From Alphaproteobacteria bacterium (GTDB lineage: Bacteria > Pseudomonadota > Alphaproteobacteria > JAJFIK01), in NCBI GenBank assembly GCA_028280665.1, contig JANQLJ010000133.1, positions 9,901-73,900 of the forward strand: a DNA stretch of 64,000 nucleotides, in the 5' to 3' direction. The notes beneath the pieces were generated by a model that was not told the origin of the DNA, did not search any database, and worked only from the letters and a program-made list of their open reading frames with translations. Within the stretch, counting starts at the first letter, position 1. Each line of letters begins with the position of its first letter. Below are positions 29,080 through 58,255 of this stretch, one piece after another. A program made the position numbers and the translations under genes.

Positions 29080-31785
29080 TTAGCCCGCGTTGCGGCGCTC
29101 GTTATCGGGTTCGTCCGGCGCCGCCTCGGGATTGGCGGAGCCTTCCTCGGCGGAAAGACCCTTCAGCTCGTCGGTGAGACCGCGAAGCGCATCGTGAATG
29201 GCCGAGAGCTCGTTTTCAGGAGGCGGGGTTTGCGACACACGCTGGCTTGCGCCTGTTGCCGGGGTCCTGACACTCTGCCCAAAGAAGCTTTTGCGCGGGG
29301 GCACCTTACCGCCGCGGGCGATCTGACCGGAAAGCCCGTCGATCCGCGTTTTCAGGTCGGCGGACGTATCTCGCATGATGCCCGAAAGCCGGTCCTGATG
29401 ACGCACAAGGGTTTCCATCATCTCATCGAGCTGCAGCCGGACGCCGCTCACGTCGGTGGTCTTAAGGCGCCGGGCAATTCCCCTGAGCCCATCGCGCAAG
29501 GCAAGGGCCATGGCTTCTTGCGCATCACCCATGGAGCCTTGAAGTGCCTCGACGCGGGCGATTTGCTCGGCAAGTGCCGGCGAGGGGCCAGCGTCCCGCG
29601 CGGCAACGGCTTTTGCAAGCGCGCGAAGTTCCACCGCCATTTGCCGCCCCGTTTCATCGAGCCGGTCGATGCGCGGGTCCAAGAGCGCCGTAACGTCCGT
29701 AGGCGGAATGATCTCCGCCTCGCCGCCCACAGGCACTTGCGGCACTTCAGCAAGGCGGGTTTGCAGGTTTTCTAGCGCGTCGGTGAGCTCTCCCGCCGCC
29801 TCGTTCTGCGCCGTGATCTTCGTGTTCAGGCGGTCGGAAAGGTCGAGCAAGCCGGTTGCGATCACGTGCTCGAAGGATCCGTTCTGGCTGTCGATCTTCT
29901 GGCCAAGTTGATAGACCGCGTTGGAAAGCGAACGTTGCGATGTTAGCGCCTGATCCTCGACGGCGCGGGTCAAGTGCGTCACCGCCTGGCCCATTTCATC
30001 GCGCAAGGCGCCAAGCACGGGCGAAAGATCAAGCGGCAATTCAATAGACTGGTTGATCGACGCCAGTTGCGCATCGAGGCTCTTGAGTGTGTATGCCAGG
30101 GTTTCTACCTGATCGCTGACGGCGCGGCGTTCGTGCTCGAACGTCATGTGCATGTCAGAGAGGTTTGTGGTGACGCCGCGGATCACATTGGCCTCGCCGA
30201 TAAAGGCGGCTTGCGCCTCGCCAAGGGCCGATTGGATGGCCGCGAGTTGCTGGTTAAGATGTTCGGCAACGCTTCCGCCCGAAGCTTTGAAGTCTTCGAT
30301 TTGCGCCTTGAGGTCCGCAAGTTCCCCGGTCATGCGTTCGAGCTTGCCGGGAAGGCCCTCGCTCTCCTCGCCCAGCGCGTTCGCGAGGCTATCCACCCGC
30401 GCCGCGGTTTCGCCAAGCTGCGCGATCATGTTTGTCGCCTCGTCGCGCAACTCGCCGCGTTCGGATTGCCAATGGGCGCGGTCGGCCTGGGCTTCGGACA
30501 TCACCGCAAGGCGCGTGTTGCGCGCGGCTTCCGCTTCCTTCGCCATGAGAACCGTTGCCGCTTGCGCCGTTTTGCCTGTGAGGTTGAGCTCCTTGACCGC
30601 CTTGTCGAGGGCGCCCATGGCGCCTTCCATGGGCGGGCCCGCCCGGTCGGCGAGTTGGCGCAGGCGGCCCAGCGCCTGATCGAGCGTGCCGATCTGGCCA
30701 TCGAGCGCAGAGAGGTGCGCGGTAAGTTCCTCCCGCGCCTGGGCGGTGGAGGTGTTGATGGCGTGCTGCTCGTTGCGCCAGGTCTCGGTAAAGTCGCTAA
30801 GTTCTTGCGTAGCGTGAGTGACGCGCGCGCCGGCGGTCGCGGTTGATTCCGCAAGCCGTTCTGAGGTGGCGCTCAAGCGATCAAGCTCGCCGCGCATGGC
30901 CTCGGCCAACTCGGTCATATCACCGCGCCAGCTTCCTTCTGTTTCAGCAAGGCTGTGGCGCGTGCCTTCAAGATCGCCCGCCACGCGCCGGACTTCGTCA
31001 CCCGCCGCCGCAAGGGCTTCAAGACGCCCGGCTGTTCCCGCCACCGCTTCATCGAGGGCGGTTTCGATGCGCGCCATGGCCTCGCGGCTTTCCCCGGCAA
31101 GCCCGTCGCGCGAATCGGAAAGGGCGCGCGCCGAGCCGCGCAAATCTTCCGTGGCCTCGGTGATATGGGCGAGCGCCGCATCCACCGCTTCGGCGCCGGA
31201 GCCTTCAAGACGCAGGCGCAAGGCGCCGTCGACGCCGACGGTCAAAAGCCGGCCCGCCTGAAGCTGGGTGCGGCGCAGGTCTTCGGCCACCCGCGCCACC
31301 ATGCCGATCTCGTCGTTCCGCTCGGTCCCGGGCAGGCTCCAGTCTTCTTCGTCGGCGAGCAGGTTTTCGAGGTTTTCGGAAAGTTTCCGCAAAGGGCGCC
31401 GCACATTGAGATGCAACAAAAGCGCGGTCAGTCCCAGAATAAAGACCGCCGCCCCGAGGGCGAGGCTGGTAATCCAGCGCTGAAGGGTCAAAACGCCGAT
31501 GGCGCTTTCGATCTGCTGCGCCTGGTCTTCGGCGGAAAGCGTTTGTTCCACCGCTACCGCGTCCGACAGCCGATCGCGGGCATCGAGCCCCATGGTGTTG
31601 GTCACCGCCGCCGCCACGACCAGCAAGACAAACAAGAAGACGGCGCCTATGACCAGAAACCGTCCGGTCAGGGTGAAAGACGTCAGTTTCGTTTTGAGCA
31701 TAGCGATGGCCCCAGTACGAGAAACGGCAATCCCCGTTCCCCCCTTGGCCATATTCGCCAAAGATGGCCTGCAGAAATGGCTCAC
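29080..31785 (-). CDS. membrane-anchored HAMP-domain protein with ~750-aa coiled-coil tail (no recognisable output domain)
   Basis: Two TM segments (FLVIGAVFLFVLLVVAAAV; ITSLALGAAVFILGLTALLLHL). HAMP-like RPLRKLSENLENLLADEEDWSLPGTERNDEIGMVARVAEDL. Remainder is heptad-rich A/E/L/R repeats. Track start 31785 is GTG; ATG alternatives at 31752 and 31701. Confidence 0.5.
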   Translation of the reverse strand: MSHFCRPSLANMAKGGTGIAVSRTGAIAMLKTKLTSFTLTGRFLVIGAVFLFVLLVVAAAVTNTMGLDARDRLSDAVAVEQTLSAEDQAQQIESAIGVLTLQRWITSLALGAAVFILGLTALLLHLNVRRPLRKLSENLENLLADEEDWSLPGTERNDEIGMVARVAEDLRRTQLQAGRLLTVGVDGALRLRLEGSGAEAVDAALAHITEATEDLRGSARALSDSRDGLAGESREAMARIETALDEAVAGTAGRLEALAAAGDEVRRVAGDLEGTRHSLAETEGSWRGDMTELAEAMRGELDRLSATSERLAESTATAGARVTHATQELSDFTETWRNEQHAINTSTAQAREELTAHLSALDGQIGTLDQALGRLRQLADRAGPPMEGAMGALDKAVKELNLTGKTAQAATVLMAKEAEAARNTRLAVMSEAQADRAHWQSERGELRDEATNMIAQLGETAARVDSLANALGEESEGLPGKLERMTGELADLKAQIEDFKASGGSVAEHLNQQLAAIQSALGEAQAAFIGEANVIRGVTTNLSDMHMTFEHERRAVSDQVETLAYTLKSLDAQLASINQSIELPLDLSPVLGALRDEMGQAVTHLTRAVEDQALTSQRSLSNAVYQLGQKIDSQNGSFEHVIATGLLDLSDRLNTKITAQNEAAGELTDALENLQTRLAEVPQVPVGGEAEIIPPTDVTALLDPRIDRLDETGRQMAVELRALAKAVAARDAGPSPALAEQIARVEALQGSMGDAQEAMALALRDGLRGIARRLKTTDVSGVRLQLDEMMETLVRHQDRLSGIMRDTSADLKTRIDGLSGQIARGGKVPPRKSFFGQSVRTPATGASQRVSQTPPPENELSAIHDALRGLTDELKGLSAEEGSANPEAAPDEPDNERRNAG

Positions 31786-32018
31786 AGAAACAGGGCGTTT
31801 TGCGTGGCCCTACGGTCCGCGCTTCTGGTTAAGGACTTGTTAATGATCGTAAAGGGGTAAGGAAAACCGGGGTGAAGGGCGGCCGCAGGTTAAATTTACC
31901 AAAAAAGTTGCACGGTTAACTTAGGCCCGTCTTAGCAACTAACAGGCAAAATGCAGAAGACCTGAGAGGTGTGTCTTGGTGAGTGCCACAACTGTTGCGC
32001 ATAGAGGCGCAGATCAAG

Positions 32019-32429
32019 ATGGTGAAGACAGCAAAACGTAAAGCCGGAAATGAGAGTGGCGCCGCGGCCGTCGAGTTTGCAATGGTGGTCCCGCTACTGC
32101 TTACATTGGTGCTGGGCACCATGGAAGCCGGGATGCTTTTTCAACTCAAAAACTCCATGACGTTTCACACGCGCGCCATCACGCGCGAAGTGGCCCTGGG
32201 GTCGCTTGACGGGAGTAATGCTCCGGCGGAATTGACCTCGCGGCTCGCGGGCTACGCTCAGCTCAATTACAACGTTTCGGTCACCGTGCCGGACCCCAAT
32301 GATCCGAACGACACCGATGTGGTTGTAACGGTCTCGGTCGCACAAACCGACCTTGAAGCCTACGCTATCACTGGCGTGCTTGTGATGGGAGACTATTCGA
32401 CCACGGCAACGATGCGTTCGCTGGAGTAA
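32019..32429 (+). CDS. TadE/TadF-like pseudopilin
   Basis: N-terminal AAAVEFAMVVPLLLTLVLGTMEAG, the TadE-like N-domain. Confidence 0.6.
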   Translation: MVKTAKRKAGNESGAAAVEFAMVVPLLLTLVLGTMEAGMLFQLKNSMTFHTRAITREVALGSLDGSNAPAELTSRLAGYAQLNYNVSVTVPDPNDPNDTDVVVTVSVAQTDLEAYAITGVLVMGDYSTTATMRSLE

Positions 32430-32433
32430 GATC

Positions 32434-33744
32434 ATGACACCGACAAAACCCACTTGTCCGTTCTGGCGTGCGTTTGCTAAGAACGAGGGCGGCTCGGCCA
32501 TACCCCTTGTCGCGTTGACAATCGTGGTCGCCACCGCCATGGCGGCATTCGCGGTTGATTTGAGCTACGTTTACCGGACCCAATCACAGCTTCTGACCGT
32601 TGCCGAAGCCGCCGCGCTTGCCGCCGCAAGCAAGCTACCGGATGAAACTGACGCCCTTGATCTTGCTCTCGAATACGCCGGGCTGAATCTTGAAAGCGCA
32701 CGGTTCACCGGTGCGGTTGAGGCGGCGGATGTGCGGTTCGGCAGTTGGGATCAAAGCACCGCGACCTTTACCGAAGACAGCTCGGGCGAGGCGGTCGAGG
32801 TGACCGCATCGCTCACCGGGCAAAAGGGCAATGCGATTCCGTCATTTTTGGGCGTAGTTCTTGGCCGCGACCAATTCGATGTCTCGACGACCGCCATCGC
32901 CACAACCTCGCCGGGATCGCCCGCCTGCATAACGGCGCTCGATCCCAATGGCTCAAAAGCGCTGTGGCTCGACTCAAATGCCGAGATACAAGTAAACGGC
33001 TGTGAGATCGTCGTGAACTCAAACCACGGACGGGCGCTCTATGCCGAGAGCAACAGCGCGATTCTTGATGCCGAACGCGTGTGCGTTGTCGGCGGCACCT
33101 TTACCAGCGAAAACAGCACGATAAATCCTGCGCCTGAAAATGGCTGCCCTCCTGTAGTCGATCCCTTCGCCCATCTCACGGAACCGCTTTATGGCGGCTG
33201 TGACTACAATAACCTGACCTTCGAGGAGGAAAACACAACGCTGTCCCCGGGTGTTTACTGCGGCGGCCTCAGGATCAGGAGCAATTCGAACGTTACCTTC
33301 AATCCGGGCATCTACATCATCAAAAATGGCAAGCTCGTCATCGAGCAAAACTCGACCGCTTCCGGCGTTGGCGTCGGCTTCTTTCTGACGGGCGGGAGCG
33401 GCCGTCTGGAATTCACCAGCAACGCCATAGTTGACTTCACCGCCCCCTCATCCGGGCCCCTAGAAGGCGTGGTATTTTTTCAAGACAGAAACTATGGCGG
33501 GACACACAAGATAGAAAGTAATAACGTAAGCGACCTGCTCGGCGCCATCTACCTTCCTGAAGGCAACCTTGAACTCAACAGCAACGGTGCAATTTCCCCA
33601 ATGGGAGGGTGTACACGGATCATTGCCCACCGGATCTTGTTTGAACAAAACAGTACGTTGAATCTCGACGCCGACTTTTCACAGTGCCCGGGTGGTGGCT
33701 CCAGCAGTTCCGGCGGCGGCAGCATGGTCCGCTTGCGCAGATAA
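32434..33744 (+). CDS. TadG-like large pseudopilin with N/S/T/G-rich C-terminal (beta-helix-like) domain; putative tip adhesin
   Basis: N-terminal AIPLVALTIVVATAMAAFAVDLSYVYRTQSQL is a TadG N-domain. C-terminal 250 aa has repeated NS/NST motifs, then GGGSSSSGGGS. Confidence 0.6.
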   Translation: MTPTKPTCPFWRAFAKNEGGSAIPLVALTIVVATAMAAFAVDLSYVYRTQSQLLTVAEAAALAAASKLPDETDALDLALEYAGLNLESARFTGAVEAADVRFGSWDQSTATFTEDSSGEAVEVTASLTGQKGNAIPSFLGVVLGRDQFDVSTTAIATTSPGSPACITALDPNGSKALWLDSNAEIQVNGCEIVVNSNHGRALYAESNSAILDAERVCVVGGTFTSENSTINPAPENGCPPVVDPFAHLTEPLYGGCDYNNLTFEEENTTLSPGVYCGGLRIRSNSNVTFNPGIYIIKNGKLVIEQNSTASGVGVGFFLTGGSGRLEFTSNAIVDFTAPSSGPLEGVVFFQDRNYGGTHKIESNNVSDLLGAIYLPEGNLELNSNGAISPMGGCTRIIAHRILFEQNSTLNLDADFSQCPGGGSSSSGGGSMVRLRR

Positions 33745-33919
33745 AGCCCCGAGGATGCGCCAGCCGCTGGCCATCATACAGCCGTAGATTCTACTCACCG
33801 GTCAGTATACTGACCGCTTGTCACAGCAAGCGTCCTTGCGGACAGCACGGCGCTTGATGAGCCGGATGGGTAGCACTTTTCTGCAAGGCACCTGAAAGAA
33901 TAGCGGTGATGGCTGCGCG

Positions 33920-34438
33920 TCAGCTGATGCGTTCAACCATCGGCACGCGGCGGGGCCGCGCGAAGAAGCGGTCGGTCAATTCCACTTCATCGGTGAGAAA
34001 ATACCCAACCAGGGTCGAGTGAACATAGCGCACGTCCACGACCACGACGCTGGCGTTCGTGGTCAAGATCCCTTCGGGCAAATCCCCAACGGTGAAGCTA
34101 CCCGCGCCGCCGTTGAAGGTGTCGGTCCAATCGATTTCCGTGGTGCCGCCATTGTCGATCACGCTGACCACCGTCACCGAGAAATCGTCCGAGGGAAACG
34201 GCTGCAGCAACGCGGTCGCCACCGCATAGATGTCTTCCATTTCGCTGTCGGTCAGTTCGACATCCTGCGCGACCAGGTCGGCCACCGCGCTGGTGACGGT
34301 CGTCACTTTCCGGTCGATAATCAGAATGTTGGAAACTTCAACGCTCGCAAAGAAGAGCACGATCATAATCGGCGCGATGAGCGCGAACTCCACCGCCGCG
34401 ATGCCGCCTTGCGCTTTTTTAAATCGTTTGAAAAACAT
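33920..34438 (-). CDS. TadE/TadF-like pseudopilin
   Basis: GGIAAVEFALIAPIMIVLFFASVEVSN N-domain. Track start 34459 is TTG; first ATG (MFFKRFKK) at 34438. Confidence 0.6.
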   Translation of the reverse strand: MFFKRFKKAQGGIAAVEFALIAPIMIVLFFASVEVSNILIIDRKVTTVTSAVADLVAQDVELTDSEMEDIYAVATALLQPFPSDDFSVTVVSVIDNGGTTEIDWTDTFNGGAGSFTVGDLPEGILTTNASVVVVDVRYVHSTLVGYFLTDEVELTDRFFARPRRVPMVERIS

Positions 34439-34455
34439 GGCTGATCCCGCCTCTG

Positions 34456-35013
34456 TCAATTGCCGAGGGCACTGCCGAACGGCTCGTTCCGGAAAGCCGT
34501 GCTGGCCGAAAGAAGCCGTTGCGTCCCACCATTCATGTTCGCCATCACAAATCCCACGCCCGGCGTAAACACGTTCCAGCTATAGAATGTGCGAACCAGG
34601 ACAATATCGCCGCCGCCGCCGGCGTCGAAAGCCGGGTCGATGGTAAACTCACCGTCTTCGTTGATGGGATTTGCGAACGCAACCGAGCCGAACTCGTCGA
34701 ACGTTTGCACTTCGACCGTCAATGAATCGCAATCGAGCATCATGTCGATGCGGTCGCAAAGCTCGTCCTTGAACTGGGCACCGGTCATCGCGGCTTGCTG
34801 TGCCTGGCCCGTGCGAATAAGGCGCGAAGTCTCAAGCAAACCGTTTTCAAGTGTAACAGAGGCAAAGAAAATCATTGTCGATTCAACAACCGCAAAGATC
34901 AGTGCAAAGAACGGTCCCACAATCATCGCGAACTCAATCGCGGTTGATCCGGACGTGTTTTTGCGGAACCGGTCAAACAATCTCTTCAAAGAAAGGCGCA
35001 ACATAACGCTCAA
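34456..35013 (-). CDS. TadE/TadF-like pseudopilin
   Basis: GSTAIEFAMIVGPFFALIFAVVESTM N-domain; 4-nt overlap with the downstream pseudopilin gene. Confidence 0.6.
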   Translation of the reverse strand: MSVMLRLSLKRLFDRFRKNTSGSTAIEFAMIVGPFFALIFAVVESTMIFFASVTLENGLLETSRLIRTGQAQQAAMTGAQFKDELCDRIDMMLDCDSLTVEVQTFDEFGSVAFANPINEDGEFTIDPAFDAGGGGDIVLVRTFYSWNVFTPGVGFVMANMNGGTQRLLSASTAFRNEPFGSALGN

Positions 35014-35125
35014 CCCTTTTTGCGGTCTTTACCGCAGCAGATTGCACCTGGCGGCGTAAAGACTTCGCAAAGAGACTTGGTAAACTTGTTAACTAGTCCC
35101 GGCGTTTTGAGAATTTAGTTCAAAT

Positions 35126-36856
<1,731 letters not shown>

Positions 36857-37025: not shown

Positions 37026-37511
37026 TTACCGTTGGCCTTCGTCGCCGATGCTCATGCCCCGCTCGGTCAGGTCCTGCCAAGCGCCCGACTGGCCGGCAAA
37101 GTTATCGGCGGCGGTCGTTTCATCCCCCGGATGCAGCGCACGAACGCAGCGCGGGTTGCACACATAATTGACCGATCCGGCCCGGACGTTCTGGTTGGGG
37201 CTGCCCATGTGAACCGCCAAGCCGCCCCGCCATTGATCGGTGACGCTGACCGATACGGTCAAAAGCTCTTGGCCGTCCTCGTCGAGAACGGTCACGTCCG
37301 TATTGCCAAAAAGGCGCCCATGAACGACCAAAGTGTGACCATTGACCATAGTGACGTCCGCCACCATGGGATTGCCGACGATAATCGCATCGGGCTCGCC
37401 CTCAACGATCACGACGCTTGATTCATTCATCGGCACGTTCATCTGCGCCGCATAGGCCGGCAAGGCCAGTACGGACATAAGCGCCGTAAATCCCAGAAAT
37501 TTCAGCTTCAT
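37026..37511 (-). CDS. secreted pilus-formation N-terminal-domain (BON/secretin-N-like) protein
   Basis: Signal peptide MKLKFLGFTALMSVLALPAYAAQ. Body resembles the N-terminal domain of CpaC/RcpA secretins (pilus formation protein N-terminal region). Confidence 0.55.
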   Translation of the reverse strand: MKLKFLGFTALMSVLALPAYAAQMNVPMNESSVVIVEGEPDAIIVGNPMVADVTMVNGHTLVVHGRLFGNTDVTVLDEDGQELLTVSVSVTDQWRGGLAVHMGSPNQNVRAGSVNYVCNPRCVRALHPGDETTAADNFAGQSGAWQDLTERGMSIGDEGQR

Positions 37512-37896
37512 AGTCTTCTCCCCCGAAGCGCGGGTTTCATACGCGCGCCATCATGGCAGCAAGATGTAAATGTCCTCTCAACGAAACCCCTGGGGATTGA
37601 GAAATGATGACCGCGGCGAAAATAAACTTGGTCCGGGGCGCCCAAGGGACTCACAGAAAGCCTACAAACCTGCGCTTGTCGGGCCATTTCCATAAAATTT
37701 GATTTAAGTTTTATTTGAGGTTTAATTAAAATCTATACCTAATTTACATACCTCACTTCTTGGAAATACCTGACCTACTCCCTCTTTTAACCTGATCGTA
37801 AGACCTCTCCTCCATGATGGCCTCATTCGCGACGGGATGCGTCTCGTGACCCCGGCGCGGGTAGGTGCTGATGAGTAAAGAATGGGAGTACTGACC
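37512..37896. promoter_or_regulatory. divergent promoter region of the flp pilin operon; strongly AT-rich core (~37680-37800)
   Basis: ccataaaatttgatttaagttttatttgaggtttaattaaaatctatacctaatttacatacc is about 75 % AT in a ~63 % GC genome. TTAA half-sites present. GGGAG Shine-Dalgarno 9 nt before the flp ATG. Confidence 0.45.
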
Positions 37897-38058
37897 ATGA
37901 CCTTCGTTTCTCGCTTTGTGAAAGACGAATCTGGTGCCACGGCGATTGAGTATGGTCTCATCGCCGCGGGCATCGCAGTGGCCATCATCGGTGTGCTGAC
38001 GACCCTCGGAACGAACCTTACGGCTACGTTCCAGTCAGTCGCCGACGAGATGTCCTAA
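37897..38058 (+). CDS. flp: Flp-family type IVc prepilin
   Basis: 53 codons, hand-translated: MTFVSRFVKDESGATAIEYGLIAAGIAVAIIGVLTTLGTNLTATFQSVADEMS. Flp motif ...G/ATAIEYGLIAA with hydrophobic core. Not in the ORF track (under 60 aa). Followed by cpaA. Confidence 0.8.
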   Translation: MTFVSRFVKDESGATAIEYGLIAAGIAVAIIGVLTTLGTNLTATFQSVADEMS

Positions 38059-38211
38059 TAAGCCGACTTACTCGCGGCGCCGTTCCCCGGTCCCGGGCGC
38101 TTATGTCCGGGGCCGGGGCAACGGCCCCGAGGTCGGGTACTAACCACCCGGAAACATATTTGTGTTGAGGTCCCGCCTAGCGATCTTGGGAACATTTCGG
38201 GGGGATGACCG

Positions 38212-38715
38212 ATGGCTGAAATTGCCGTCTTTTGGATACTGCCAGCAGCGTTTCTCGTTGCAGCCTTTACGGACATCACCCGGTTTACTATTCCAAACTG
38301 GCTGACCAGCGTGATCGCGCTTTTCTTTTTGCCCGTTGCTCTTTGGGCGGGTATCGAACCCATCGTAATAATCGTCCATCTAGGCGTCGGCATCTTTGCC
38401 CTTGGCATGGGCATGATGTTTTTCGCCTTTGGATGGCTTGGCGGCGGCGATGCCAAGCTGGTGGCCGCGGCGGCCCTTTGGGCCGGCCCGACGGCCGTAT
38501 GGATCTTCGTGCTGGCAGCAGCGCTGTTCGGCGGCGCGCTCACCATGGCGCTGATCTTCTTCCGCAAGCTGCCTTTGCCTGAGTTTTTCGCGGCGCAGCC
38601 CTGGATCGCACGACTTCACGATCATGAAGCAGGCATTCCTTATGGCGTCGCGCTTTCCGCCGGGGCGCTCTACGCCCTTCCTTTCATGACCCTGAGCCAG
38701 GCGCTCGCCACATGA
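38212..38715 (+). CDS. cpaA: prepilin peptidase CpaA/TadV (A24 family)
   Basis: Polytopic membrane protein with the two catalytic Asp contexts FTDITRFTIPN and GGGDAKL. Confidence 0.8.
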   Translation: MAEIAVFWILPAAFLVAAFTDITRFTIPNWLTSVIALFFLPVALWAGIEPIVIIVHLGVGIFALGMGMMFFAFGWLGGGDAKLVAAAALWAGPTAVWIFVLAAALFGGALTMALIFFRKLPLPEFFAAQPWIARLHDHEAGIPYGVALSAGALYALPFMTLSQALAT

Positions 38716-38883
38716 GCTAAGGGTCCGACGCATACGGATTAACAAAATGGTAACGAATTGCGCGCCCCCGTCCGGAAAAACCCGGGCGGGGGTCGCTCGC
38801 GTTAAGACTAATTTGATTCACTTTGTGCATGCTCATCCCAAGGGCAACCAGGGAATGGCGGCAAACAGGGGGAGACCTACCCG

Positions 38884-39705
38884 ATGAACGCAATACGCAT
38901 ATCCATTTTGGGACTCGCGCTGGTCGCTGCCGGCGTCGCAGCCTATCTGGTGCGGGGTCTCGTGCTCGAGAACGAGCAGCAGACCGTTGACGCCGGCCCC
39001 GTTATCGAGACCACCGGTGTTCTGGTCGCCAGCGGGGTCATCATGCCGGGCGATACGGTAAACGCCGGCGCTCTGCGCTGGCAGGACTGGCCGGTTGATG
39101 CGGTGGCCCCGGGCCAGGTTACGCAAACCGCGCAGCCCAACGCCCGCTCGGACCTTCAAGGCAGCATCGCACGCCGCAGGTTCGGCGGCGGTGAGCCCAT
39201 CCTTCCCGACGCGCTGGTTAAGCCAGGCGAAGCGGGCCTGATGGCCGCGCTGGTCTCGCCGGGCATGCGAGCCATGGCGGTATCGGTTTCGGACGAGAAC
39301 TCGGCGGGCGGCTTTATCCTGCCCGGCGACCGCGTTGATGTGGTGGTCACCCGCGAGGTCGGCATCGACCGCAGCAGCCGCTCCTACGTCAGCGAGACGG
39401 TGCTTTACAACGTGCGTGTCCTGGCGATTGACCAGATCTTTTCCGAAGACGTCTCCGGCGGCGCGCTGGTGGGCGACACCATCACGCTGGAGTTGACGCC
39501 CGGCCAGGCCGAAACGCTGGCGCTCGCGCAAGCGGTCGGTGACGTTTCACTCGCGCTGCGCAGCTTTGCCGATGCAAACGCGGCGGAGACGCAAAACCAG
39601 CTTGCGGATGTCGTGGCGTCTGCCGACGAGCAGCGCTCGAACCAAATCACGGTTGTACGCAATGGACAGGAGACCCGCGTTCGGGTCGAAGGGGGCGGAC
39701 GATGA
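38884..39705 (+). CDS. cpaB: Flp pilus assembly protein CpaB/RcpC (SAF domain)
   Basis: N-terminal TM MNAIRISILGLALVAAGVAAYLV followed by a SAF-like domain. Operon position between cpaA and the secretin. Confidence 0.8.
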   Translation: MNAIRISILGLALVAAGVAAYLVRGLVLENEQQTVDAGPVIETTGVLVASGVIMPGDTVNAGALRWQDWPVDAVAPGQVTQTAQPNARSDLQGSIARRRFGGGEPILPDALVKPGEAGLMAALVSPGMRAMAVSVSDENSAGGFILPGDRVDVVVTREVGIDRSSRSYVSETVLYNVRVLAIDQIFSEDVSGGALVGDTITLELTPGQAETLALAQAVGDVSLALRSFADANAAETQNQLADVVASADEQRSNQITVVRNGQETRVRVEGGGR

Positions 39706-41132
39706 GCCGGTTCAACTTCAACACAAAAGCCAAAGCGCTTTTCGCAAGCATCGCGCTGGGGCTTATGATCGCCCCTCCGGCCGTAGCCCTGGAGAACCAG
39801 ATGTTCGTGACCATTCACGAAGCCGGTTCCGGGCACATGGCGCGTATGATCACCATACCGCACAACAAGTCGGTAATCGTCGAGTTGCCGGTGGACGCGG
39901 CCGACATTCTGGTCACCAACCCGGAAATCGTCGACGCCATCGTTCGGACCCCGCGCCGCACCTATCTGATGGGCAAGGCCGTGGGCCAAACAAACGCGTT
40001 CTTCTTCGATGCGCGGGGCCGGCAATTGCTGGATCTCGAAATCCAGGTGGAACGCGATCTCACCCCGCTCAATAATCTTTATGCGGAGCTGCTGCCCGAT
40101 GCACGCATTCAAGTGGACGCCATCAACGACAACCTGGTGCTGACCGGGTTCGTGCCCAACGCGGTCGCCGCCGATCAGGCGCGCGATCTGGCGGGCCGTT
40201 TTGTCGGCAACCCGGACTCGGTCCTGAACATGCTCAGCATCGAAGCCAATGAGCAGGTTCAGCTTCAGGTCCGCGTTGTGGAAATGCAGCGCAGCCTGGC
40301 GCGTCAATTGGGCGTGGACCTTGCCGCGTCGTTTAGCGCCGGCAACGTCGCCTTCTCGCCGGTCACGTCCAATCCGTTTTCGGTGGCGGGCTCCATTTTG
40401 GGCGGCCTGGGCACTCCCGCATCGCCGGACCGGACGTTCCGCTGGTCGTCGAACGGGGATTATCTTGATGGCTCGCTGCGCGCCTTTGAGCGCAACGGGT
40501 TGATCCGTACCCTGGCCGAACCGAACTTGACCGCCATCTCAGGGGAAAGCGCAAACTTCCTCGCCGGTGGTGAGTTCCCGGTTGCCACGGGCCGCGATTC
40601 CGAAGGCAACGCGACCATCGAGTTCAAGCCCTTCGGTGTCGGCCTTGGCTTTACCCCGGTGGTGCTCGACGAGGGCCGCATTTCGCTGCATATCAACACC
40701 GAAGTGTCGGACCTTTCGACCGACGGTGCCTTGCAGATCAACGATCTGGCGACCATTCCGGGCCTCACGGTGCGGCGCGCGGAAACTACGGTCGAGCTGC
40801 CTTCGGGCGGCAGCCTGGTGATCGCGGGCCTTCTGCAGGACTCAACCCGCCGCAACATGGACGGCGTCCCCTTTGTGAAGGACACGCCCGTGCTTGGCGC
40901 GCTGTTCCGGTCAGAGGACTACCAGAACGATGAGACCGAACTGGTGATCATCGTAACGCCCTACCTCGTTGACCCCACGGCGATGAGCGAGCTTGCCACG
41001 CCGGATCTCGGCTACGTGCCGGCAAATCCCGTTGACTCAACGTTCCTGGGCCGCCTGAACGCCACCTATGCGGTGGGTGAAGGGGCCGAGGGCCGCCGTC
41101 TTCAAGGTCCCGTTGGATACATTGTGGAGTAA
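39702..41132 (+). CDS. cpaC: Tad secretin CpaC/RcpA (type II/III secretion system secretin family)
   Basis: Secretin C-domain motifs ...VRRAETTVELPSGGSLVIAGLLQD...VPFVKDTPVLGALFRS...LVIIVTPYLV. Confidence 0.85.
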   Translation: MSRFNFNTKAKALFASIALGLMIAPPAVALENQMFVTIHEAGSGHMARMITIPHNKSVIVELPVDAADILVTNPEIVDAIVRTPRRTYLMGKAVGQTNAFFFDARGRQLLDLEIQVERDLTPLNNLYAELLPDARIQVDAINDNLVLTGFVPNAVAADQARDLAGRFVGNPDSVLNMLSIEANEQVQLQVRVVEMQRSLARQLGVDLAASFSAGNVAFSPVTSNPFSVAGSILGGLGTPASPDRTFRWSSNGDYLDGSLRAFERNGLIRTLAEPNLTAISGESANFLAGGEFPVATGRDSEGNATIEFKPFGVGLGFTPVVLDEGRISLHINTEVSDLSTDGALQINDLATIPGLTVRRAETTVELPSGGSLVIAGLLQDSTRRNMDGVPFVKDTPVLGALFRSEDYQNDETELVIIVTPYLVDPTAMSELATPDLGYVPANPVDSTFLGRLNATYAVGEGAEGRRLQGPVGYIVE

Positions 41133-41136
41133 GGCC

Positions 41137-41835
41137 ATGACTAAGATGAAACACATCGCGCTGAGCGCAACCTGCATCGCCTTGGCCGCAATGGCGGGCT
41201 GCGGGACCATGCGTGGAACGACGGATCCCAACCTGATCATGCAGTACGAGGAACGTCACCCCATCACCGTGCGGGCGACCGAGGCGGAAATGCAAATCTC
41301 GGTCAATCCGCAATCAGTGGCGCTGTTGCGGGTCGATGAGACGCGCCTGCGTGCCTTTGCGGCGGCTTACCGCACGCGCGGTCACGGGCCCATGGTCATC
41401 ATGGTGCCGTCGGAAACGCCGAACGCCATGGCGGCAACGCAAGTGATGGCCGATGTTCACGCGGTGCTAACCGAAGAAGGCCTGCACCCCGATGATGTGG
41501 CCTCGCAGGCCTATCACACGAACGAAAACCCGGCCTGGGCGCCGCTCGTGCTCAGCTTCCGGCGTTATCAGGCCGAAGCCGCGCCTTGCGGCGATTGGAG
41601 CGAAAGCTACACCCGCCGCTACAACGGCAATCCGACGCCCAACTGGGGCTGCGCCACGCAAAACAATCTGGCGGCCATGGTGTCCGAGCCGGCCGACCTG
41701 GTTGGCCCGCGGGACATGACCCCGGCAAACGCCGCGCAGCGGTCGGAAATGCTCGGCCGCTACCGCAGCGGGCGCGATACCAACACCGTTCGTTCAGGTG
41801 CGGATGACGCATCTGTTGCAGAAGACGTTCAGTAG
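41137..41835 (+). CDS. cpaD: pilus assembly lipoprotein CpaD
   Basis: Lipobox LAAMAGCG at residue ~20. Size and operon position match CpaD. Track start 41068 rejected. Confidence 0.6.
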   Translation: MTKMKHIALSATCIALAAMAGCGTMRGTTDPNLIMQYEERHPITVRATEAEMQISVNPQSVALLRVDETRLRAFAAAYRTRGHGPMVIMVPSETPNAMAATQVMADVHAVLTEEGLHPDDVASQAYHTNENPAWAPLVLSFRRYQAEAAPCGDWSESYTRRYNGNPTPNWGCATQNNLAAMVSEPADLVGPRDMTPANAAQRSEMLGRYRSGRDTNTVRSGADDASVAEDVQ

Positions 41836-41843
41836 TCAGAGGA

Positions 41844-43187
41844 GTGGCTGAGATGGCCGAACAAGCAGAAAATCTGACACCGGAAGAAGAAGACGGCGTT
41901 AGCGACGAAGGTAGTGTGGCGGAGCGCGCTGCTTCGCTGACCGCCGAGGTGGCGGGGCCCGTGGAACAACCGCGCACTGAAACTGTGCAGGTGCGTCCGG
42001 TTCCGCGGATCAGCATCGATTGCTTCTGCGATAACCCGGATACCGGATCGACGATCCAGCGGGCCGCTGAAGACCGCCGGCTCGCACGGACGCACACCAC
42101 CATCTACATGGGCGGTATCGACGCGGCCATCGAGCATTACAGCAGCCGCGCCACGCCGAACCTGATCGTGGTTGAAGACCTTGACGCCACGACGGACATT
42201 TTGAACGGGCTGGAGCGGCTTGCGGAAAGCTGCGACGCCTCGACCAAGGTGATCGTCATCGGGTCGAACAATGACATCGCGCTCTATCGGGAGCTGATGC
42301 GCGCGGGCGTGAGCGATTACCTGATCACACCGTTTTCGCCGCTTCAGTTCATCGAATCGGTGTCCTCGCTTTATGTGGACCCCAACGCGGGGCCGATCGG
42401 CAAGGTCATCGTCTTTGCCGGAACCAAAGGCGGCGCGGGCGCGAGCACTGTTGCGCACAATGTGGGCTGGCTGATCTCCGAGGAAGTCGAAGACGACGTC
42501 ACCATCGTTGACTTCGATGTTGCCTTCGGCACCGCGGGTCTCGACTTCAATCAAGAGCCTTTGCAAGGCGTCTCCGACGCCCTCGCCTCGCCCGAACGTC
42601 TCGACGACGTGCTTTTGGACCGTCTGCTCGCCAAGTGCACGGACCATCTGAACGTGCTTGCGGCGCCTGCAGCCCTCGACCGCGAGATGGATCTCGATCC
42701 GGGCGCCTATGAGTCGGTGCTTGATGTGGTGCGCCAGTCGTGCCCCGTGGTGATTGTCGACCTGCCCCACGTGTGGTCGGCCTGGTCCCGGCAAGTGCTG
42801 GTGGCCGCCGATGAAGTGGTGCTGGTGACCTCGCCGGATCTGGCGGGCCTGCGCAACACCAAAAACCTTGCGGACCTGCTGGTGCTGGCCCGCCCCAATG
42901 ACGCGCCGCCGCGGATCGTTTTGAACCAATGCGGTTTGCCGAAGCGTCCGGAGATCACCTCCAAGGATTTCGCAGACGCCGTTGGCCGCGACATTTCAGC
43001 GGCCGTTCCGTTCGATGCCATGTTGTTCGGTACGGCTGCCAATAACGGCCAAATGATCGGCGAGTTAAAAGCCGACGGAAAGCCGACCGAAGAACTGCGT
43101 GAACTCGCACAGCAACTCACAGGCCGTAAGGTTCCAGGAAAACAAAAGAAAAACGTCCTGACCAGACTCGTGGGTAGAAAGGGCTAA
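41844..43187 (+). CDS. cpaE: CpaE: REC-like N-domain + ParA/MinD-type ATPase
   Basis: Deviant Walker A VIVFAGTKGGAGASTVAHN; N-terminal receiver-like domain. Confidence 0.8.
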   Translation: MAEMAEQAENLTPEEEDGVSDEGSVAERAASLTAEVAGPVEQPRTETVQVRPVPRISIDCFCDNPDTGSTIQRAAEDRRLARTHTTIYMGGIDAAIEHYSSRATPNLIVVEDLDATTDILNGLERLAESCDASTKVIVIGSNNDIALYRELMRAGVSDYLITPFSPLQFIESVSSLYVDPNAGPIGKVIVFAGTKGGAGASTVAHNVGWLISEEVEDDVTIVDFDVAFGTAGLDFNQEPLQGVSDALASPERLDDVLLDRLLAKCTDHLNVLAAPAALDREMDLDPGAYESVLDVVRQSCPVVIVDLPHVWSAWSRQVLVAADEVVLVTSPDLAGLRNTKNLADLLVLARPNDAPPRIVLNQCGLPKRPEITSKDFADAVGRDISAAVPFDAMLFGTAANNGQMIGELKADGKPTEELRELAQQLTGRKVPGKQKKNVLTRLVGRKG

Positions 43188-43188
43188 G

Positions 43189-44646
43189 GTGTTTGGGAAA
43201 CGGGGACAAGGTGCGCCGCAAACCGTAACCGCCGATGCCGCCGCCAAGGCGGCCCCGGCGGAGCTTACGGGTGTGTCGGAAGCACCTTCGGAGAACAAGA
43301 AGCCGAAGATGCCGGCTCCGGAAGCGGTCGCCAAGAACGCGCCCAAAAGCGCGTCCGCGGCGACGCGGTCGGACGATTACTATGCTGTCAAGCAATCGAT
43401 CTTCGCCGCACTGATCGACACCATCGATCTGGGCCAGCTTGCCCAACTCGATCAAAAGAGTGCCCGTGACGAAATTCGCGACATCGTCACCGAGATCATT
43501 CAGCTCAAGAATGTCGTCATGTCCATCTCCGAGCAGGAAAACCTGCTTGAGGACATCTGTAATGACGTGCTGGGCTATGGCCCGCTCGAGCCACTGCTGG
43601 CGCGGGACGACATCGCGGACATTATGGTCAATGGCGCGGGCCGCGTCTTTATCGAAGTGGAAGGCAAGGTCGAGCTGACCCCCATCCGCTTCCGCGACAA
43701 CACGCAGCTTATGAATATCTGCCAGCGGATCGTGAGCCAGGTGGGCCGCCGCGTCGATGAATCGGCGCCGATCTGTGACGCCCGCTTGCAGGATGGCAGC
43801 CGCGTCAACGTGATTGCCCCGCCGCTGTCCATCGACGGGCCTTCGCTCACCATCCGGAAGTTCAAGCGCGACAAGCTGACCCTGAAGGACTTCGTCAATT
43901 ACGGCTCCATCAATGAGGCCGGGGCGGATATCCTGGGCATTATGGGCGCGTCGCGCTGCAACGTTCTGATTTCCGGCGGAACCGGTTCCGGTAAGACGAC
44001 GCTTCTGAACTGCATGACCGGGTTTATCGACGTCACCGAGCGGATCATCACCTGCGAGGACGCCGCCGAGCTGCAGCTGCAACAGCCCCACGTGGTGCGC
44101 CTTGAAACCCGTCCGCCCAACATCGAAGGGTTCGGCGAGATCACCATGCGGGACCTTGTGCGGAACTGCCTGCGGATGCGGCCTGAGCGCATTGTGGTGG
44201 GCGAGGTGCGCGGACCGGAGGCCTTTGACCTGCTGCAGGCCATGAATACTGGCCATGACGGTTCCATGGGCACGCTGCACGCGAACTCACCCCGCGAGGC
44301 CATGTCGCGCCTTGAAAGCATGATCACCATGGGCGGGTTCAACCTGCCCTCCAAGACCATCCGCGAAATGATCTGCGGGTCAATCGACGTGATCATCCAA
44401 GCCGAACGCATGCGCGACGGCTCGCGCCGCATTACCCACATCACCGAGGTGCTAGGCCAGGAAGGCGACGTGATCATTACGCAAGACCTTATGCTCTATG
44501 AGCTGGAGGGCGAGGATAACGGCAAAATCCGCGGCCATCACCGCGGCACCGGGATCGCCCGCCCTGCGTTCTGGGACCGGGCCCGTTACTTCAATCTCCA
44601 TGGCAAACTGGCAAATGCGCTTGACCGGTTGAACGAGGAGTTCTGA
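43189..44646 (+). CDS. cpaF: CpaF/TadA secretion ATPase (type II/IV secretion NTPase)
   Basis: Walker A ISGGTGSGKTTLLN; Asp box and His box (TMGG...) typical of TadA/VirB11. Confidence 0.9.
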   Translation: MFGKRGQGAPQTVTADAAAKAAPAELTGVSEAPSENKKPKMPAPEAVAKNAPKSASAATRSDDYYAVKQSIFAALIDTIDLGQLAQLDQKSARDEIRDIVTEIIQLKNVVMSISEQENLLEDICNDVLGYGPLEPLLARDDIADIMVNGAGRVFIEVEGKVELTPIRFRDNTQLMNICQRIVSQVGRRVDESAPICDARLQDGSRVNVIAPPLSIDGPSLTIRKFKRDKLTLKDFVNYGSINEAGADILGIMGASRCNVLISGGTGSGKTTLLNCMTGFIDVTERIITCEDAAELQLQQPHVVRLETRPPNIEGFGEITMRDLVRNCLRMRPERIVVGEVRGPEAFDLLQAMNTGHDGSMGTLHANSPREAMSRLESMITMGGFNLPSKTIREMICGSIDVIIQAERMRDGSRRITHITEVLGQEGDVIITQDLMLYELEGEDNGKIRGHHRGTGIARPAFWDRARYFNLHGKLANALDRLNEEF

Positions 44647-44651
44647 CGTTC

Positions 44652-45641
44652 ATGTCTTCAACGGTAATCCTGATCCTATTGCCCATCCTTGCGCTGGTGA
44701 CCGTGGCGGGCGTCGGCTATGCCTTTGTGGGCACGAGCAACACCAACGCCGTAGCAAAGAAGCGCTTCCAGAACATCAAGCAGGGCACGGCGGCTTCCAC
44801 GCGGGAATCAAATGCCCAGCAAAAGGAACGCGACCGGCGCAAGACGGTTCAAAAAACGCTTAAAGAGCTGGAAGAGCGGCAAAAGGAAGAGCGGGCAAGA
44901 ATCTCCCTGCGCACGCGCATTGAGCAAGCGGGCCTTAAGTTCTCTCCTCTTGTGTTCTGGCTCGGCTCGGGCGCCTTTGGCATCATCGGCTACTTCTCTC
45001 TTGCCATGAGCGGTCTTCATTGGACCGTTGCCATTGCCGGCGCGCTTGCGGCGGCGTTCGGTTTGCCGCGCTGGCTGCTCGGCTATCTCAGAACCCGCCG
45101 TCAAAAGGTGTTTTTGCTCGAGTTCGCAAACGCGCTCGATGTGATTGTTCGCGGCGTGAAGGCCGGTCTGCCGCTTTCGGAATGCCTCAACATCGTCGCC
45201 CGCGAAAGCCCCGACCCGGTCGGCGGCGAGTTCCGCCGGGTTGTGGAAGGCGCCCGCGTCGGCGTCACGCTGGAAGAAGGCCTGATGGGCATGTACGAGC
45301 GCATGCCGGTGCCGGAAGTGAACTTTTTCGTCATTGTGCTGGCGATCCAGCAAAAGTCGGGCGGTAATCTCTCCGAGGCGCTGGGTAACCTTTCGAATGT
45401 CTTGCGCGAACGCAAACTGATGCGCGGCAAGATTCAAGCCATGTCGTCGGAAGCAAAAGCGTCGGCGGGCATTATCGGCTCGCTGCCGCCGGGCGTGATG
45501 GCGCTCATCTATGTTTCGACGCCGTCTTACATCACCGTCCTGTTCAATGAGCAGATCGGCAACATCATCCTGATTGCGGGCGCTTGCTGGATGGCGCTGG
45601 GCATTCTGGTGATGAAGAAGATGATCAACTTCGACTTCTAG
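44652..45641 (+). CDS. tadB: TadB (type II secretion system F-domain inner membrane platform protein)
   Basis: GspF-like domain with three TM segments; operon position after cpaF. Confidence 0.75.
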   Translation: MSSTVILILLPILALVTVAGVGYAFVGTSNTNAVAKKRFQNIKQGTAASTRESNAQQKERDRRKTVQKTLKELEERQKEERARISLRTRIEQAGLKFSPLVFWLGSGAFGIIGYFSLAMSGLHWTVAIAGALAAAFGLPRWLLGYLRTRRQKVFLLEFANALDVIVRGVKAGLPLSECLNIVARESPDPVGGEFRRVVEGARVGVTLEEGLMGMYERMPVPEVNFFVIVLAIQQKSGGNLSEALGNLSNVLRERKLMRGKIQAMSSEAKASAGIIGSLPPGVMALIYVSTPSYITVLFNEQIGNIILIAGACWMALGILVMKKMINFDF

Positions 45642-45658
45642 GCTGGGGCGGACGAACT

Positions 45659-46633
45659 ATGTATGGCATCATTCAACTTCTGACGGACCCTGAGTTCTAC
45701 GCCGTTTTGTTCACGGCGGCGGCCGTGTTCGCCACGGTGCTGACCTTCACCCTGCCGCTTTTTCAAGGCAACAGGCTGAACGCGCGGCTCAAGTCCGTTG
45801 CGTCGCGGCGCGAGGAACTGCGCCTTAAAAGCCGTGAGGCGCTTATGAACGCCGAGCGCAAGAGAAGCATTCGCATGAACAGCGAAGGCCTTCGCGAACA
45901 ACTGGCCGACCGGATCAATCTTGAGAAACTGATGGACGCGCCGGGCACGCGCAAAACCCTCGCCATGGCGGGGCTGCGCGGGCAAGGGCCATACATCACC
46001 TACCTGTTCATACGGCTGGTGGGTCCGATCATCCTGGCCGCGGTCGGCGCGCTTTATTCTTTCGTGCTGGTGCAAACCGAGATGTTGCCGGTGGTCAAGT
46101 TCGCCATCCCGCTGGGAACCTTTGCCGCCGGATACTATCTGCCGACCATTATTCTGCGGAACATGGTGGAACGGCGCCAGCAATCGATCCAGCGCGCCTT
46201 TCCTGACGCGCTCGACCTTCTGCTCATTTGCGTTGAGTCGGGCATGTCCATCGAAGCCGGGTTCAGCCGCGTGGCGGCGGAAGTGGGCACCCAATCGCCG
46301 GAACTGGCCGAAGAAATGGGTCTGGTAACGGCGGAGTTGTCATTCCTGCAAGACCGCAGCCAGGCTTATGAGAACCTTGCTCAGCGCACGGACTTGCCGG
46401 GCGTGAAAGCAGTGACCACGTCGCTTATTCAGGCCGAACGGTACGGAACGCCCATCGGCCAAGCGCTGCGCGTCATGGCCGATGAAAACCGCGCCATGCG
46501 CATGCAGGTCGCCGAGAAGAAAGCGGCCGCCCTGCCCGCACAGTTGACCGTGCCCATGATCGTCTTCTTCCTGCCGGTCCTGTTCCTGGTCATCCTGGGA
46601 CCGGCGGCGATCCGTTTCTTCGACACCCAGTAA
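45659..46633 (+). CDS. tadC: TadC (type II secretion system F-domain platform protein)
   Basis: GspF-like; start chosen at MYGIIQLLTDPEFYAVLF (45659) rather than the track's 45584, which overlaps tadB. Confidence 0.7.
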   Translation: MYGIIQLLTDPEFYAVLFTAAAVFATVLTFTLPLFQGNRLNARLKSVASRREELRLKSREALMNAERKRSIRMNSEGLREQLADRINLEKLMDAPGTRKTLAMAGLRGQGPYITYLFIRLVGPIILAAVGALYSFVLVQTEMLPVVKFAIPLGTFAAGYYLPTIILRNMVERRQQSIQRAFPDALDLLLICVESGMSIEAGFSRVAAEVGTQSPELAEEMGLVTAELSFLQDRSQAYENLAQRTDLPGVKAVTTSLIQAERYGTPIGQALRVMADENRAMRMQVAEKKAAALPAQLTVPMIVFFLPVLFLVILGPAAIRFFDTQ

Positions 46634-46714: not shown

Positions 46715-47551
46715 TTAGGGCGTGGCCTCTTCGCCGCCAGCATCTTCGTTGCCCGCGTCTTCGCCGTCTTCCAGTTCGTTCCAAGCCGAAGGCTGAGTCA
46801 GCATGGCCCGGTAATAAGCCACGTTGTTTTCCACCGCTTCGGGGGGAAGATCGGCGCGGGAAACGCGCCCCGCCTCGTCGAACTTTCCTTGAACGCCGAG
46901 CACCAGCGCCAGGTTCTGCCGCATCTGCATGGTGGCGCCGGGCTCCGCGACCGCCGCTCTCAACAGCATTTCCGCGCCTTCCGGATCGCCCGCAAGGGCG
47001 CGCGAGAGCCCATAATTGTTGAGCACGTTGGGATTGTTGGGAGAGGCAGCCAATGCCCGTTCATAGCTCTGGGTCGCATTGGCAAAATCACCAACTTGAT
47101 CGTAGGCAACGCCTTCAAGGGAATGAAGCTCCCAGTTATCAGGCTCGCGGGAAATCGCCTGTGCGATGGGCCCAAGCGCGTCCCCCCCTTGCCGCGCCGA
47201 TAGCATCACGCGCGAATACTCGGTCAGAACGCCCACGTCGCTGGGGTGTTCCAGCATCGTGCGGGCCATGAGCGATCCTGCTTCGTTGAGCGATCCCATG
47301 CCGCGCAAGGCCTTGGAAAACCGCACCGCCAGATCGCTGTTTCCCGGATTGGCTTCGTAGCGCGCACCCCAATAGGTCGCCTGGGAAACCGGGTCATCGC
47401 CAAGGGGCGCATCCGGCAGGTCATTGACCATCGAGCGGGCGGGCGAGGCGCCCGCGGCGCTTCCCGTGCCCGTGGTCTCGCACCCCGCAAGCGCCGCGGC
47501 GGCAATGAGCGCGATCACGGAAACCGGCCTTTTGAATGACATGGCGGGCAT
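46715..47551 (-). CDS. TPR-repeat lipoprotein, TadD-like
   Basis: Lipoprotein signal ...VIALIAAAALAGCET. Multiple TPR-like A/L/Y-rich repeats; adjacent to the tad operon. Confidence 0.6.
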   Translation of the reverse strand: MPAMSFKRPVSVIALIAAAALAGCETTGTGSAAGASPARSMVNDLPDAPLGDDPVSQATYWGARYEANPGNSDLAVRFSKALRGMGSLNEAGSLMARTMLEHPSDVGVLTEYSRVMLSARQGGDALGPIAQAISREPDNWELHSLEGVAYDQVGDFANATQSYERALAASPNNPNVLNNYGLSRALAGDPEGAEMLLRAAVAEPGATMQMRQNLALVLGVQGKFDEAGRVSRADLPPEAVENNVAYYRAMLTQPSAWNELEDGEDAGNEDAGGEEATP

Positions 47552-47708
47552 GGTGAGCCGTCCTCCTTCAAGGGCTGTCGAGAAGATTCGTTGGCAAAGT
47601 CTCACAGCGCCGTCTCAAGAAATTCTTAACCGCTTGGGGCCGCAGCCACCCTGGGGTTTGCGGCCGCGATCACCTTTTCAGGGCCCGCGCAATGGGTATA
47701 GTCGGACC

Positions 47709-58154: not shown

Positions 58155-58255
58155 CCTTGAGAGGTTGGCTGGACGGACCACTCGCCAACCCGGTCAGGTC
58201 CGGAAGGAAGCAGCCGTAACGAGACCGGTTCGGGTCGGTTCAGCCTCTCACCCTT
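58155..58255 (+). ncRNA. ffs: signal recognition particle RNA (4.5S, small type)
   Basis: Contains the conserved domain IV sequence GGUCAGGUCCGGAAGGAAGCAGCC. Closing helix gagagg...cctctc. Lies immediately upstream of dnaX, the conserved ffs-dnaX-ybaB-recR arrangement. Confidence 0.75.

Follow-up and report, generated by a model that had tools for sequence, protein, structure and literature searches.

Identification of a Flp/PilA pilin gene

We identified a short open reading frame (ORF) at positions 37897-38058 of the forward strand in a 64,000-nt stretch of DNA from an uncultured alphaproteobacterium (hereafter, the window) and consider it, with a probability of about 95%, to be the structural pilin gene (flp/pilA) of a Caulobacter-type Cpa/Tad pilus. 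The ORF extends from ATG to TAA, consists of 53 codons plus the stop codon, and translates as MTFVSRFVKDESGATAIEYGLIAAGIAVAIIGVLTTLGTNLTATFQSVADEMS. The assignment draws on matches to Pfam and the PDB, the pattern of codon changes among relatives, and public gene calls, and we found nothing substantive that speaks against it. The initial annotation, which had proposed a 53-codon Flp pilin gene at this position, named the Flp/Fap hidden Markov model (HMM) as the check. Applied to the product, Flp_Fap (PF04964) gave a score of 76.4 bits, well above its cut-off of 32.2 (E = 1.5e-21), and the match is full-length, with residues 7-52 covering profile positions 1-46 of 46. With a custom profile built from homologues, the ORF scored 120 bits and was the sole strong match among 1359 six-frame segments. 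A search of a 5.8-billion-protein collection returned at least 7965 homologues at E ≤ 1e-5; PF04964 was found on every homologue listed, and the named ones carry the descriptions “Flp family type IVb pilin” or “pilus assembly protein Flp/PilA.” No NCBIfam model matched either Flp or CpaA, which we read as a matter of library content rather than as a cause for doubt, because Pfam and the PDB both match.

Judged from its sequence, the product is a Flp-family (Tad, type IVc) prepilin of 53 aa, with a predicted leader of 13 residues (MTFVSRFVKDESG) and a predicted mature pilin of 40 aa that begins with ATAIEYGLI. The Flp processing motif G↓XXXXEY, which the initial annotation had recognized, is present (...DESG13↓A14-T-A-I-E18-Y19), with Glu and Tyr as residues 5 and 6 of the mature part. 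Among 19 aligned sequences, A14-T15-A16-I17-E18-Y19-G20-L21-I22 was invariant and G13 was conserved in at least 90%. The best matches in the PDB were 8u1k_A (E = 1e-6) and 8u2b_A, in both of which residue 1 of the mature chain (ATAIEYGLI...) aligns with residue 14 of the query. The predicted prepilin-peptidase cleavage point between G13 and A14 (Gly13 codon at 37932-37934 and Ala14 codon, GCC, at 37935..37937, forward strand) is supported, since the mature Caulobacter PilA chains start at the aligned residue.

The two PDB entries, 8U1K and 8U2B, are cryo-EM structures of Caulobacter crescentus Tad pilus filaments, the subunits of which are 45 aa long and consist of a helix only (PMC10710030). 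The 40-aa mature part of the window product aligns to this helix-only subunit and is accordingly likely to be a small pilin devoid of a globular domain. The predicted mature pilin has an average mass of 3968.5 Da and a monoisotopic mass of 3966.09 Da, the prepilin weighing 5453 Da; Lys, Arg, and Cys are absent from the mature part. The N-terminal half is strongly hydrophobic, its mean Kyte-Doolittle hydropathy being 1.79 over residues 14-36 and 2.27 over residues 20-36, and the C-terminal third (TNLTATFQSVADEMS) is polar. The length of the mature part equals the median mature Flp length of 77 genomic relatives (40 aa).

Coding status, start codon, and annotation of flp

Being short, the ORF falls under common ORF length filters, and one could ask whether it is a chance ORF or a decayed, unexpressed pseudogene. 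The full-profile Pfam match (E = 1.5e-21) argues against this, as does the comparison with the syntenic orthologue in the related locus L005 (79% nucleotide identity): the 34 nucleotide differences are distributed over codon positions 1, 2, and 3 as 3, 3, and 28, and amount to 28 synonymous versus 3 non-synonymous codon changes. The orphan flp gene on the metagenomic contig L008 differs by 20 synonymous and 9 non-synonymous changes. Given that synonymous changes far outnumber non-synonymous ones and that third-position differences dominate, flp appears to be a coding gene under purifying selection. In addition, the ribosome-binding site is invariant and every relative retains an intact frame; a frameshift, which the initial annotation had named as grounds for withdrawing the gene, was not seen. 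The Pfam match and the codon-change pattern together effectively refute the chance-ORF or pseudogene reading, to which we assign a negligible probability.

The start codon of this coding gene requires a choice between two in-frame ATG codons. A Shine-Dalgarno sequence, GGGAG, which the initial annotation had noted, lies at 37884-37888 (forward strand), 8 nt 5′ of ATG 37897. At this site, the segment TGGGAGTA is invariant in five related loci with diverged flanks, and the block GGTGCTGA-GAG-AA located 5′ of it is likewise invariant in the five relatives amid diverged surrounding sequence. The program-made ORF list instead chose the upstream ATG at 37882, which would lengthen the leader to 18 residues and the prepilin to 58 aa while leaving the mature product unchanged, and one homologue (P0010) has been called in the equivalent 58-aa form (MGVQTMTFVS...). 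However, ATG 37882 overlaps the conserved GGGAG and has no ribosome-binding site of its own; the public protein collection contains the 53-aa product in exactly this form, in gene calls derived from NCBI, Logan, and ENA, but lacks the 58-aa form; the codon corresponding to ATG 37882 is TTG in the two more distant relatives L007 and L092; and most homologues have leaders of 13-14 residues. On these grounds, we accept ATG 37897, the start codon given in the initial annotation, as the probable start of flp and regard initiation at 37882 as very unlikely.

The description of flp as unannotated holds only relative to a length-filtered ORF track (with 53-58 aa, the gene would be missed at a cut-off of 60 aa, the default of the ORF listing used here); it does not hold for public resources: the exact 53-aa protein has been gene-called on NCBI (GCA_028279895.1, a metagenome-assembled genome [MAG]), Logan, and ENA contigs, with PF04964 assigned. 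Thus, flp is an ordinary gene of an already known kind, which standard gene callers find, and the gene itself offers no novel reading. Since Flp pilins are encoded by 50-60 codons, an ORF cut-off near 60 aa makes Tad loci seem pilin-less, and the remedy is a rescue step based on a profile (PF04964) or a motif (G-x4-EY). Biologically, the window gene is a routine orthologue of Caulobacter PilA, and its mechanism is apparent from the structures already solved for Tad pili; what the locus adds is modest and lies in the flanks, namely, a conserved 3′ hairpin accompanying flp and CtrA-box-like sites clustered along the locus.

Organization of the cpa/tad locus

Profile matches place flp within a complete cpa/tad locus, encompassing pseudopilin genes, cpaA to cpaF, tadB, tadC, and a gene for a tetratricopeptide repeat (TPR) protein at the position of tadD. 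The upstream part of the locus is a pseudopilin/minor-pilin block (31983..36856), in which we recognized, by matches to PF07811, PF13400, PF09977, and VWA profiles and by G-xxx-[IV]EF motifs, genes for a TadE-like protein (31983-32429, forward strand), a TadG-like protein (32434-33744, forward), a TadE/F-like protein (33920-34459, reverse), a second TadE-like protein (34456-35013, reverse), and a TadG-like protein with a VWA domain (35126-36856, forward). Between this block and flp, a gene on the reverse strand (37026-37511) encodes a 161-aa protein matching PF13629 (61.8 bits).

Downstream of flp, cpaA/tadV (38212-38715, forward strand) encodes a stand-alone A24 prepilin peptidase of 167 aa (PF01478, 53.3 bits against a cut-off of 26.5). 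Peptidase_A24 is its sole Pfam match, with no methyltransferase domain among the matches, and both Asp21 and Asp80 (in GGGDAKL) are present; the paired Asp residues of GxGD aspartic prepilin peptidases are catalytic. By these features, CpaA fits the pattern of the presumably non-methylating TadV/CpaA class. The initial annotation had flp directly followed by the A24 peptidase gene, which is correct as to gene order, but the two genes are separated by a gap of 153 nt that carries a conserved hairpin (see below).

The remainder of the assembly machinery is encoded on the forward strand, starting with cpaB/rcpC (38884-39705; TIGR03177, 221.5 bits, and PF16976) and the secretin gene cpaC/rcpA (39702-41132; PF00263, PF13629, and BON domains). 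These are followed by cpaD (PF09476, 192 bits), which is listed as an ORF at 41068-41835. The next genes are a cpaE/tadZ-like gene, for a ParA/MinD-type ATPase (41844-43187; PF13614 AAA_31 and locus position), cpaF/tadA, for the motor ATPase (43189-44646; PF00437 T2SSE, 217 bits), and tadB and tadC, for the two platform proteins (44652-45641 and ~45584-46633, respectively; both PF00482 [T2SSF]). The TPR protein gene at the tadD position (46715-47605; TPR family matches) is on the reverse strand. The listed start of cpaD, 41068, overlaps the end of cpaC (41068-41135); the true start is probably near 41137, because orthologues have been called at 232 aa.

Conservation of the locus and number of flp copies

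The order of the PF13629 gene (reverse strand), flp, cpaA, cpaB, cpaC, cpaD, and onwards recurs in six related loci (L001, L005, L006, L007, L089, and L092); a further one, L002, is a short contig that spans the PF13629 gene to cpaA only. The position of the PF13629 gene beside flp is kept in all seven. Its product in the window is essentially the PF13629 pilus N-terminal domain that is also found at the N-terminus of CpaC, and the gene is divergent from flp. A wider set comprised 77 species representatives from the Alphaproteobacteria; in 54 of them, flp is followed within 1.5 kb by an A24-like ORF. The closest species representatives, which are 70-76% identical, are uncultured or Hyphomicrobiales-like alphaproteobacteria.

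Neither a six-frame motif scan nor the custom HMM found a second Flp-type gene in the 64-kb window; apart from flp, the matches were weak and fell on the N-terminal motif of TadE-like pseudopilins. The remark in the initial annotation that the island would look pilin-less without this ORF is thereby borne out. Elsewhere, orphan flp genes encoding proteins 83-91% identical to the window product were found on metagenomic contigs away from any cpa locus (L008:259-420, L090:1501-1662, and L091:1501-1662), which is why related genomes may contain several flp copies.

We infer from position and homology that the window flp encodes the major subunit of the pilus. The existence of the highly similar orphan genes on L008, L090, and L091, and the fact that the visible portion of the genome is 64 kb, would fit a different arrangement, in which the window gene encodes a genuine Flp pilin that is minor or alternative and the main pilin is the product of a paralogous orphan flp located outside the window. 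Several features speak against such an arrangement: the window gene is found where pilA canonically lies, directly ahead of cpaA, which is also the case in Caulobacter and in the 54 of 77 relatives; it possesses a strong and conserved ribosome-binding site as well as a 3′ hairpin; and it is the sole flp gene in the window. We therefore consider it unlikely that the main pilin is encoded elsewhere and retain the window gene as the probable source of the major subunit.

A conserved stem-loop 3′ of flp

A GC-rich stem-loop is located directly 3′ of flp, at 38072-38131 on the forward strand, as indicated by minimum free energy (MFE) folding, conservation, and covariation. The 166-nt segment that contains it (38050-38215) folds at -79.9 kcal/mol, with a z-score of -2.97. 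The stem-loop is conserved in syntenic loci, where compensatory changes affect 4 of 27 pairs, and also follows the orphan flp genes that have no cpaA downstream (L008, L090, and L091); over seven sequences, syntenic and orphan, double changes were detected in 8 of 24 pairs. None of 500 shuffles reached the observed covariation, and stem pairing fell from 89% to at most 59% when the partners were slid by one column or more. By these comparative measures, we regard the stem-loop as a genuine element. It does not recur as a dispersed repeat within the window, and at gathering thresholds no Rfam family was matched near flp, the sole Rfam match in the window being the bacterial small SRP RNA at 58158-58253 on the forward strand (RF00169, 62 bits).

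We considered and rejected the possibility that the element is a canonical intrinsic (Rho-independent) terminator: in the window, the stem is followed by CCCGAGGTCGGG and the U-tract that defines such terminators is absent, and a scan for consensus terminators did not report the stem-loop. A role in termination is uncertain for the same reason, the lack of a U-tract in the window. In the orphan locus L008, the stem is followed by GGGGTTTTTCTTTG / TTTTTCTTT, a U-tract. It is plausible that the stem-loop is a putative attenuator or an mRNA-stabilizing 3′ structure. More tentatively, and with the odds rather against it, the stem-loop could be a dedicated, undescribed cis-regulatory RNA of alphaproteobacterial flp genes, acting at cpa-linked copies as a leaky attenuator or 3′-end stabilizer that sets the pilin-to-machinery ratio and at orphan copies as a full terminator.

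CtrA-like boxes upstream of flp and across the locus

The region upstream of flp includes an AT-rich patch (37700-37749, 18% GC) and, at 37693..37801 on the forward strand, a putative promoter or other regulatory region with five TTAA-N7-TTAA sites, each with one mismatch; none of the five is a perfect match. Within this region, five relatives show no variation in TTAA (37787-37790) or AA (37800-37801). A sigma-70 promoter scan of 37400-38900 reported no promoter-like site, its consensus being one that does not cover alphaproteobacterial or CtrA-type promoters.

Allowing for up to one mismatch, the window contains 12 CtrA-box-like sites versus 4.2 expected, an excess to be read with the caution that AT-rich DNA inflates chance matches. 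Ten of the 12 are intergenic or promoter-proximal within the tad locus, and the sites are located at 31829-31843, 35139-35153, 37693-37801, 38739-38816, and 47615-47629. The one at 31829-31843, upstream of the TadE-like gene that starts at 31983, is a perfect TTAA-N7-TTAA. In Caulobacter, pilA is controlled by CtrA through several such sites (PMC11264516). By analogy, a CtrA-like regulator may control the window locus, and the clustering of the sites, which are putative and serve as a lead, suggests an expression logic like that of Caulobacter.

Comparison with known systems and a model of pilus assembly

The closest described counterpart is PilA of C. crescentus (PDB 8U1K, 8U2B/8UCR). The leaders are of the same type (...RF-x-KDESG↓ATAIEYGLI), the mature N-terminus ATAIEYGLI is identical, and residues 14-48 of the window product align to mature residues 1-35 of PilA; both proteins appear to be helix-only and too small to accommodate a globular domain. 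The order of genes in the window also matches that of Caulobacter, pilA-cpaA-cpaB-cpaC-cpaD-cpaE-cpaF. The two pilins differ in the C-terminal third that forms the surface, which is TATFQSVADEMS here and RTAFTKA... in the aligned part of the Caulobacter protein, and in the mature chain, which is shorter here (40 aa versus 45 aa; PMC10710030). Furthermore, the host of the window locus is not Caulobacter but an uncultured Hyphomicrobiales-like alphaproteobacterium.

Likenesses also connect the window locus to the founding Tad locus, that of Aggregatibacter actinomycetemcomitans, with which it has in common a PF04964 pilin (Flp-1 in that species) and the G↓xxxxEY motif. The A. actinomycetemcomitans locus encodes a dedicated non-methylating A24 peptidase (TadV), TadA/B/C/D/E/F/G/Z, and Rcp-type components, all of which have their counterparts here. 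The window locus differs from it in its alphaproteobacterial cpa arrangement, which includes cpaD, and in the shorter leader of its pilin.

Type IVa and IVb pilins, such as PilA of Pseudomonas and TcpA, resemble the window product in having a class III signal peptide that is removed by an aspartic peptidase of the A24 family, a Glu as the fifth mature residue, and a hydrophobic helix (alpha1-N). Unlike these proteins, which measure 140-200 aa, the window pilin would be ~40 aa long and devoid of a globular C-terminal domain; it carries the Flp motif with Tyr6, and its mature part does not start with Phe1. A further difference concerns the peptidase, CpaA here being without a detected methyltransferase domain (PMC10710030).

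Read against the accepted Tad/Cpa model and the structures solved for Caulobacter (PMC10710030, PMC11067988), the gene content of the locus suggests the following pathway. The 53-aa prepilin would be inserted into the inner membrane via its hydrophobic helix, and CpaA would cut it after Gly13, releasing the 40-aa mature pilin (~3968.5 Da). The CpaF ATPase, acting through the TadB/TadC platform, would then drive polymerization of the single-helix subunits, with the TadE/F/G-type minor pilins priming the filament, and the filament would exit through CpaB, CpaC, and CpaD, with CpaC serving as the secretin. In the filament, as in the solved Caulobacter one, the hydrophobic N-terminal half of the subunit would build the core and the polar C-terminal third the surface. 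Owing to its own strong ribosome-binding site and the conserved stem-loop ahead of cpaA, pilin mRNA would probably be far in excess of machinery mRNA; the excess could arise by attenuation or by 3′-end stabilization, with the stem-loop belonging to the flp transcript.

Additional features of the locus and its borders

A 46-codon ORF between cpaA and cpaB (38747-38887, forward strand) has been gene-called in L005 and L089. We rejected it as coding: nucleotide differences are spread over the codon positions as 16, 16, and 9, and the ORF is probably non-coding. Its conserved stretch, which would translate as KTNLIHFVH, coincides in part with the CtrA-like site at 38802-38816 and is possibly an element of the cpaB promoter.

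The VWA-domain TadG-like protein encoded at 35126-36856 carries a 30-residue insertion, G4-D10-E-D-G18 (aa 329-362, window positions 36110-36220), that is encoded by runs of GAC/GAT and GGC/GGT triplets and is lacking in the L005 orthologue (78% identity). This poly-Asp/poly-Gly insertion could be a slippage-prone simple-sequence tract in a candidate minor pilin or adhesin. The annotated TTG start of the same gene, at 35126, is probably ~30 codons too far upstream.

In terms of base composition, the tad locus does not clearly stand out as an island, with 57% GC at 32-38 kb versus ~62% elsewhere. It is bordered by a 901-aa ORF on the reverse strand (29080-31785). At the edge of the tad loci in L005, L006, and L007, proteins of 959-983 aa, which have no confident Pfam domain, are encoded beside an acetyltransferase gene.
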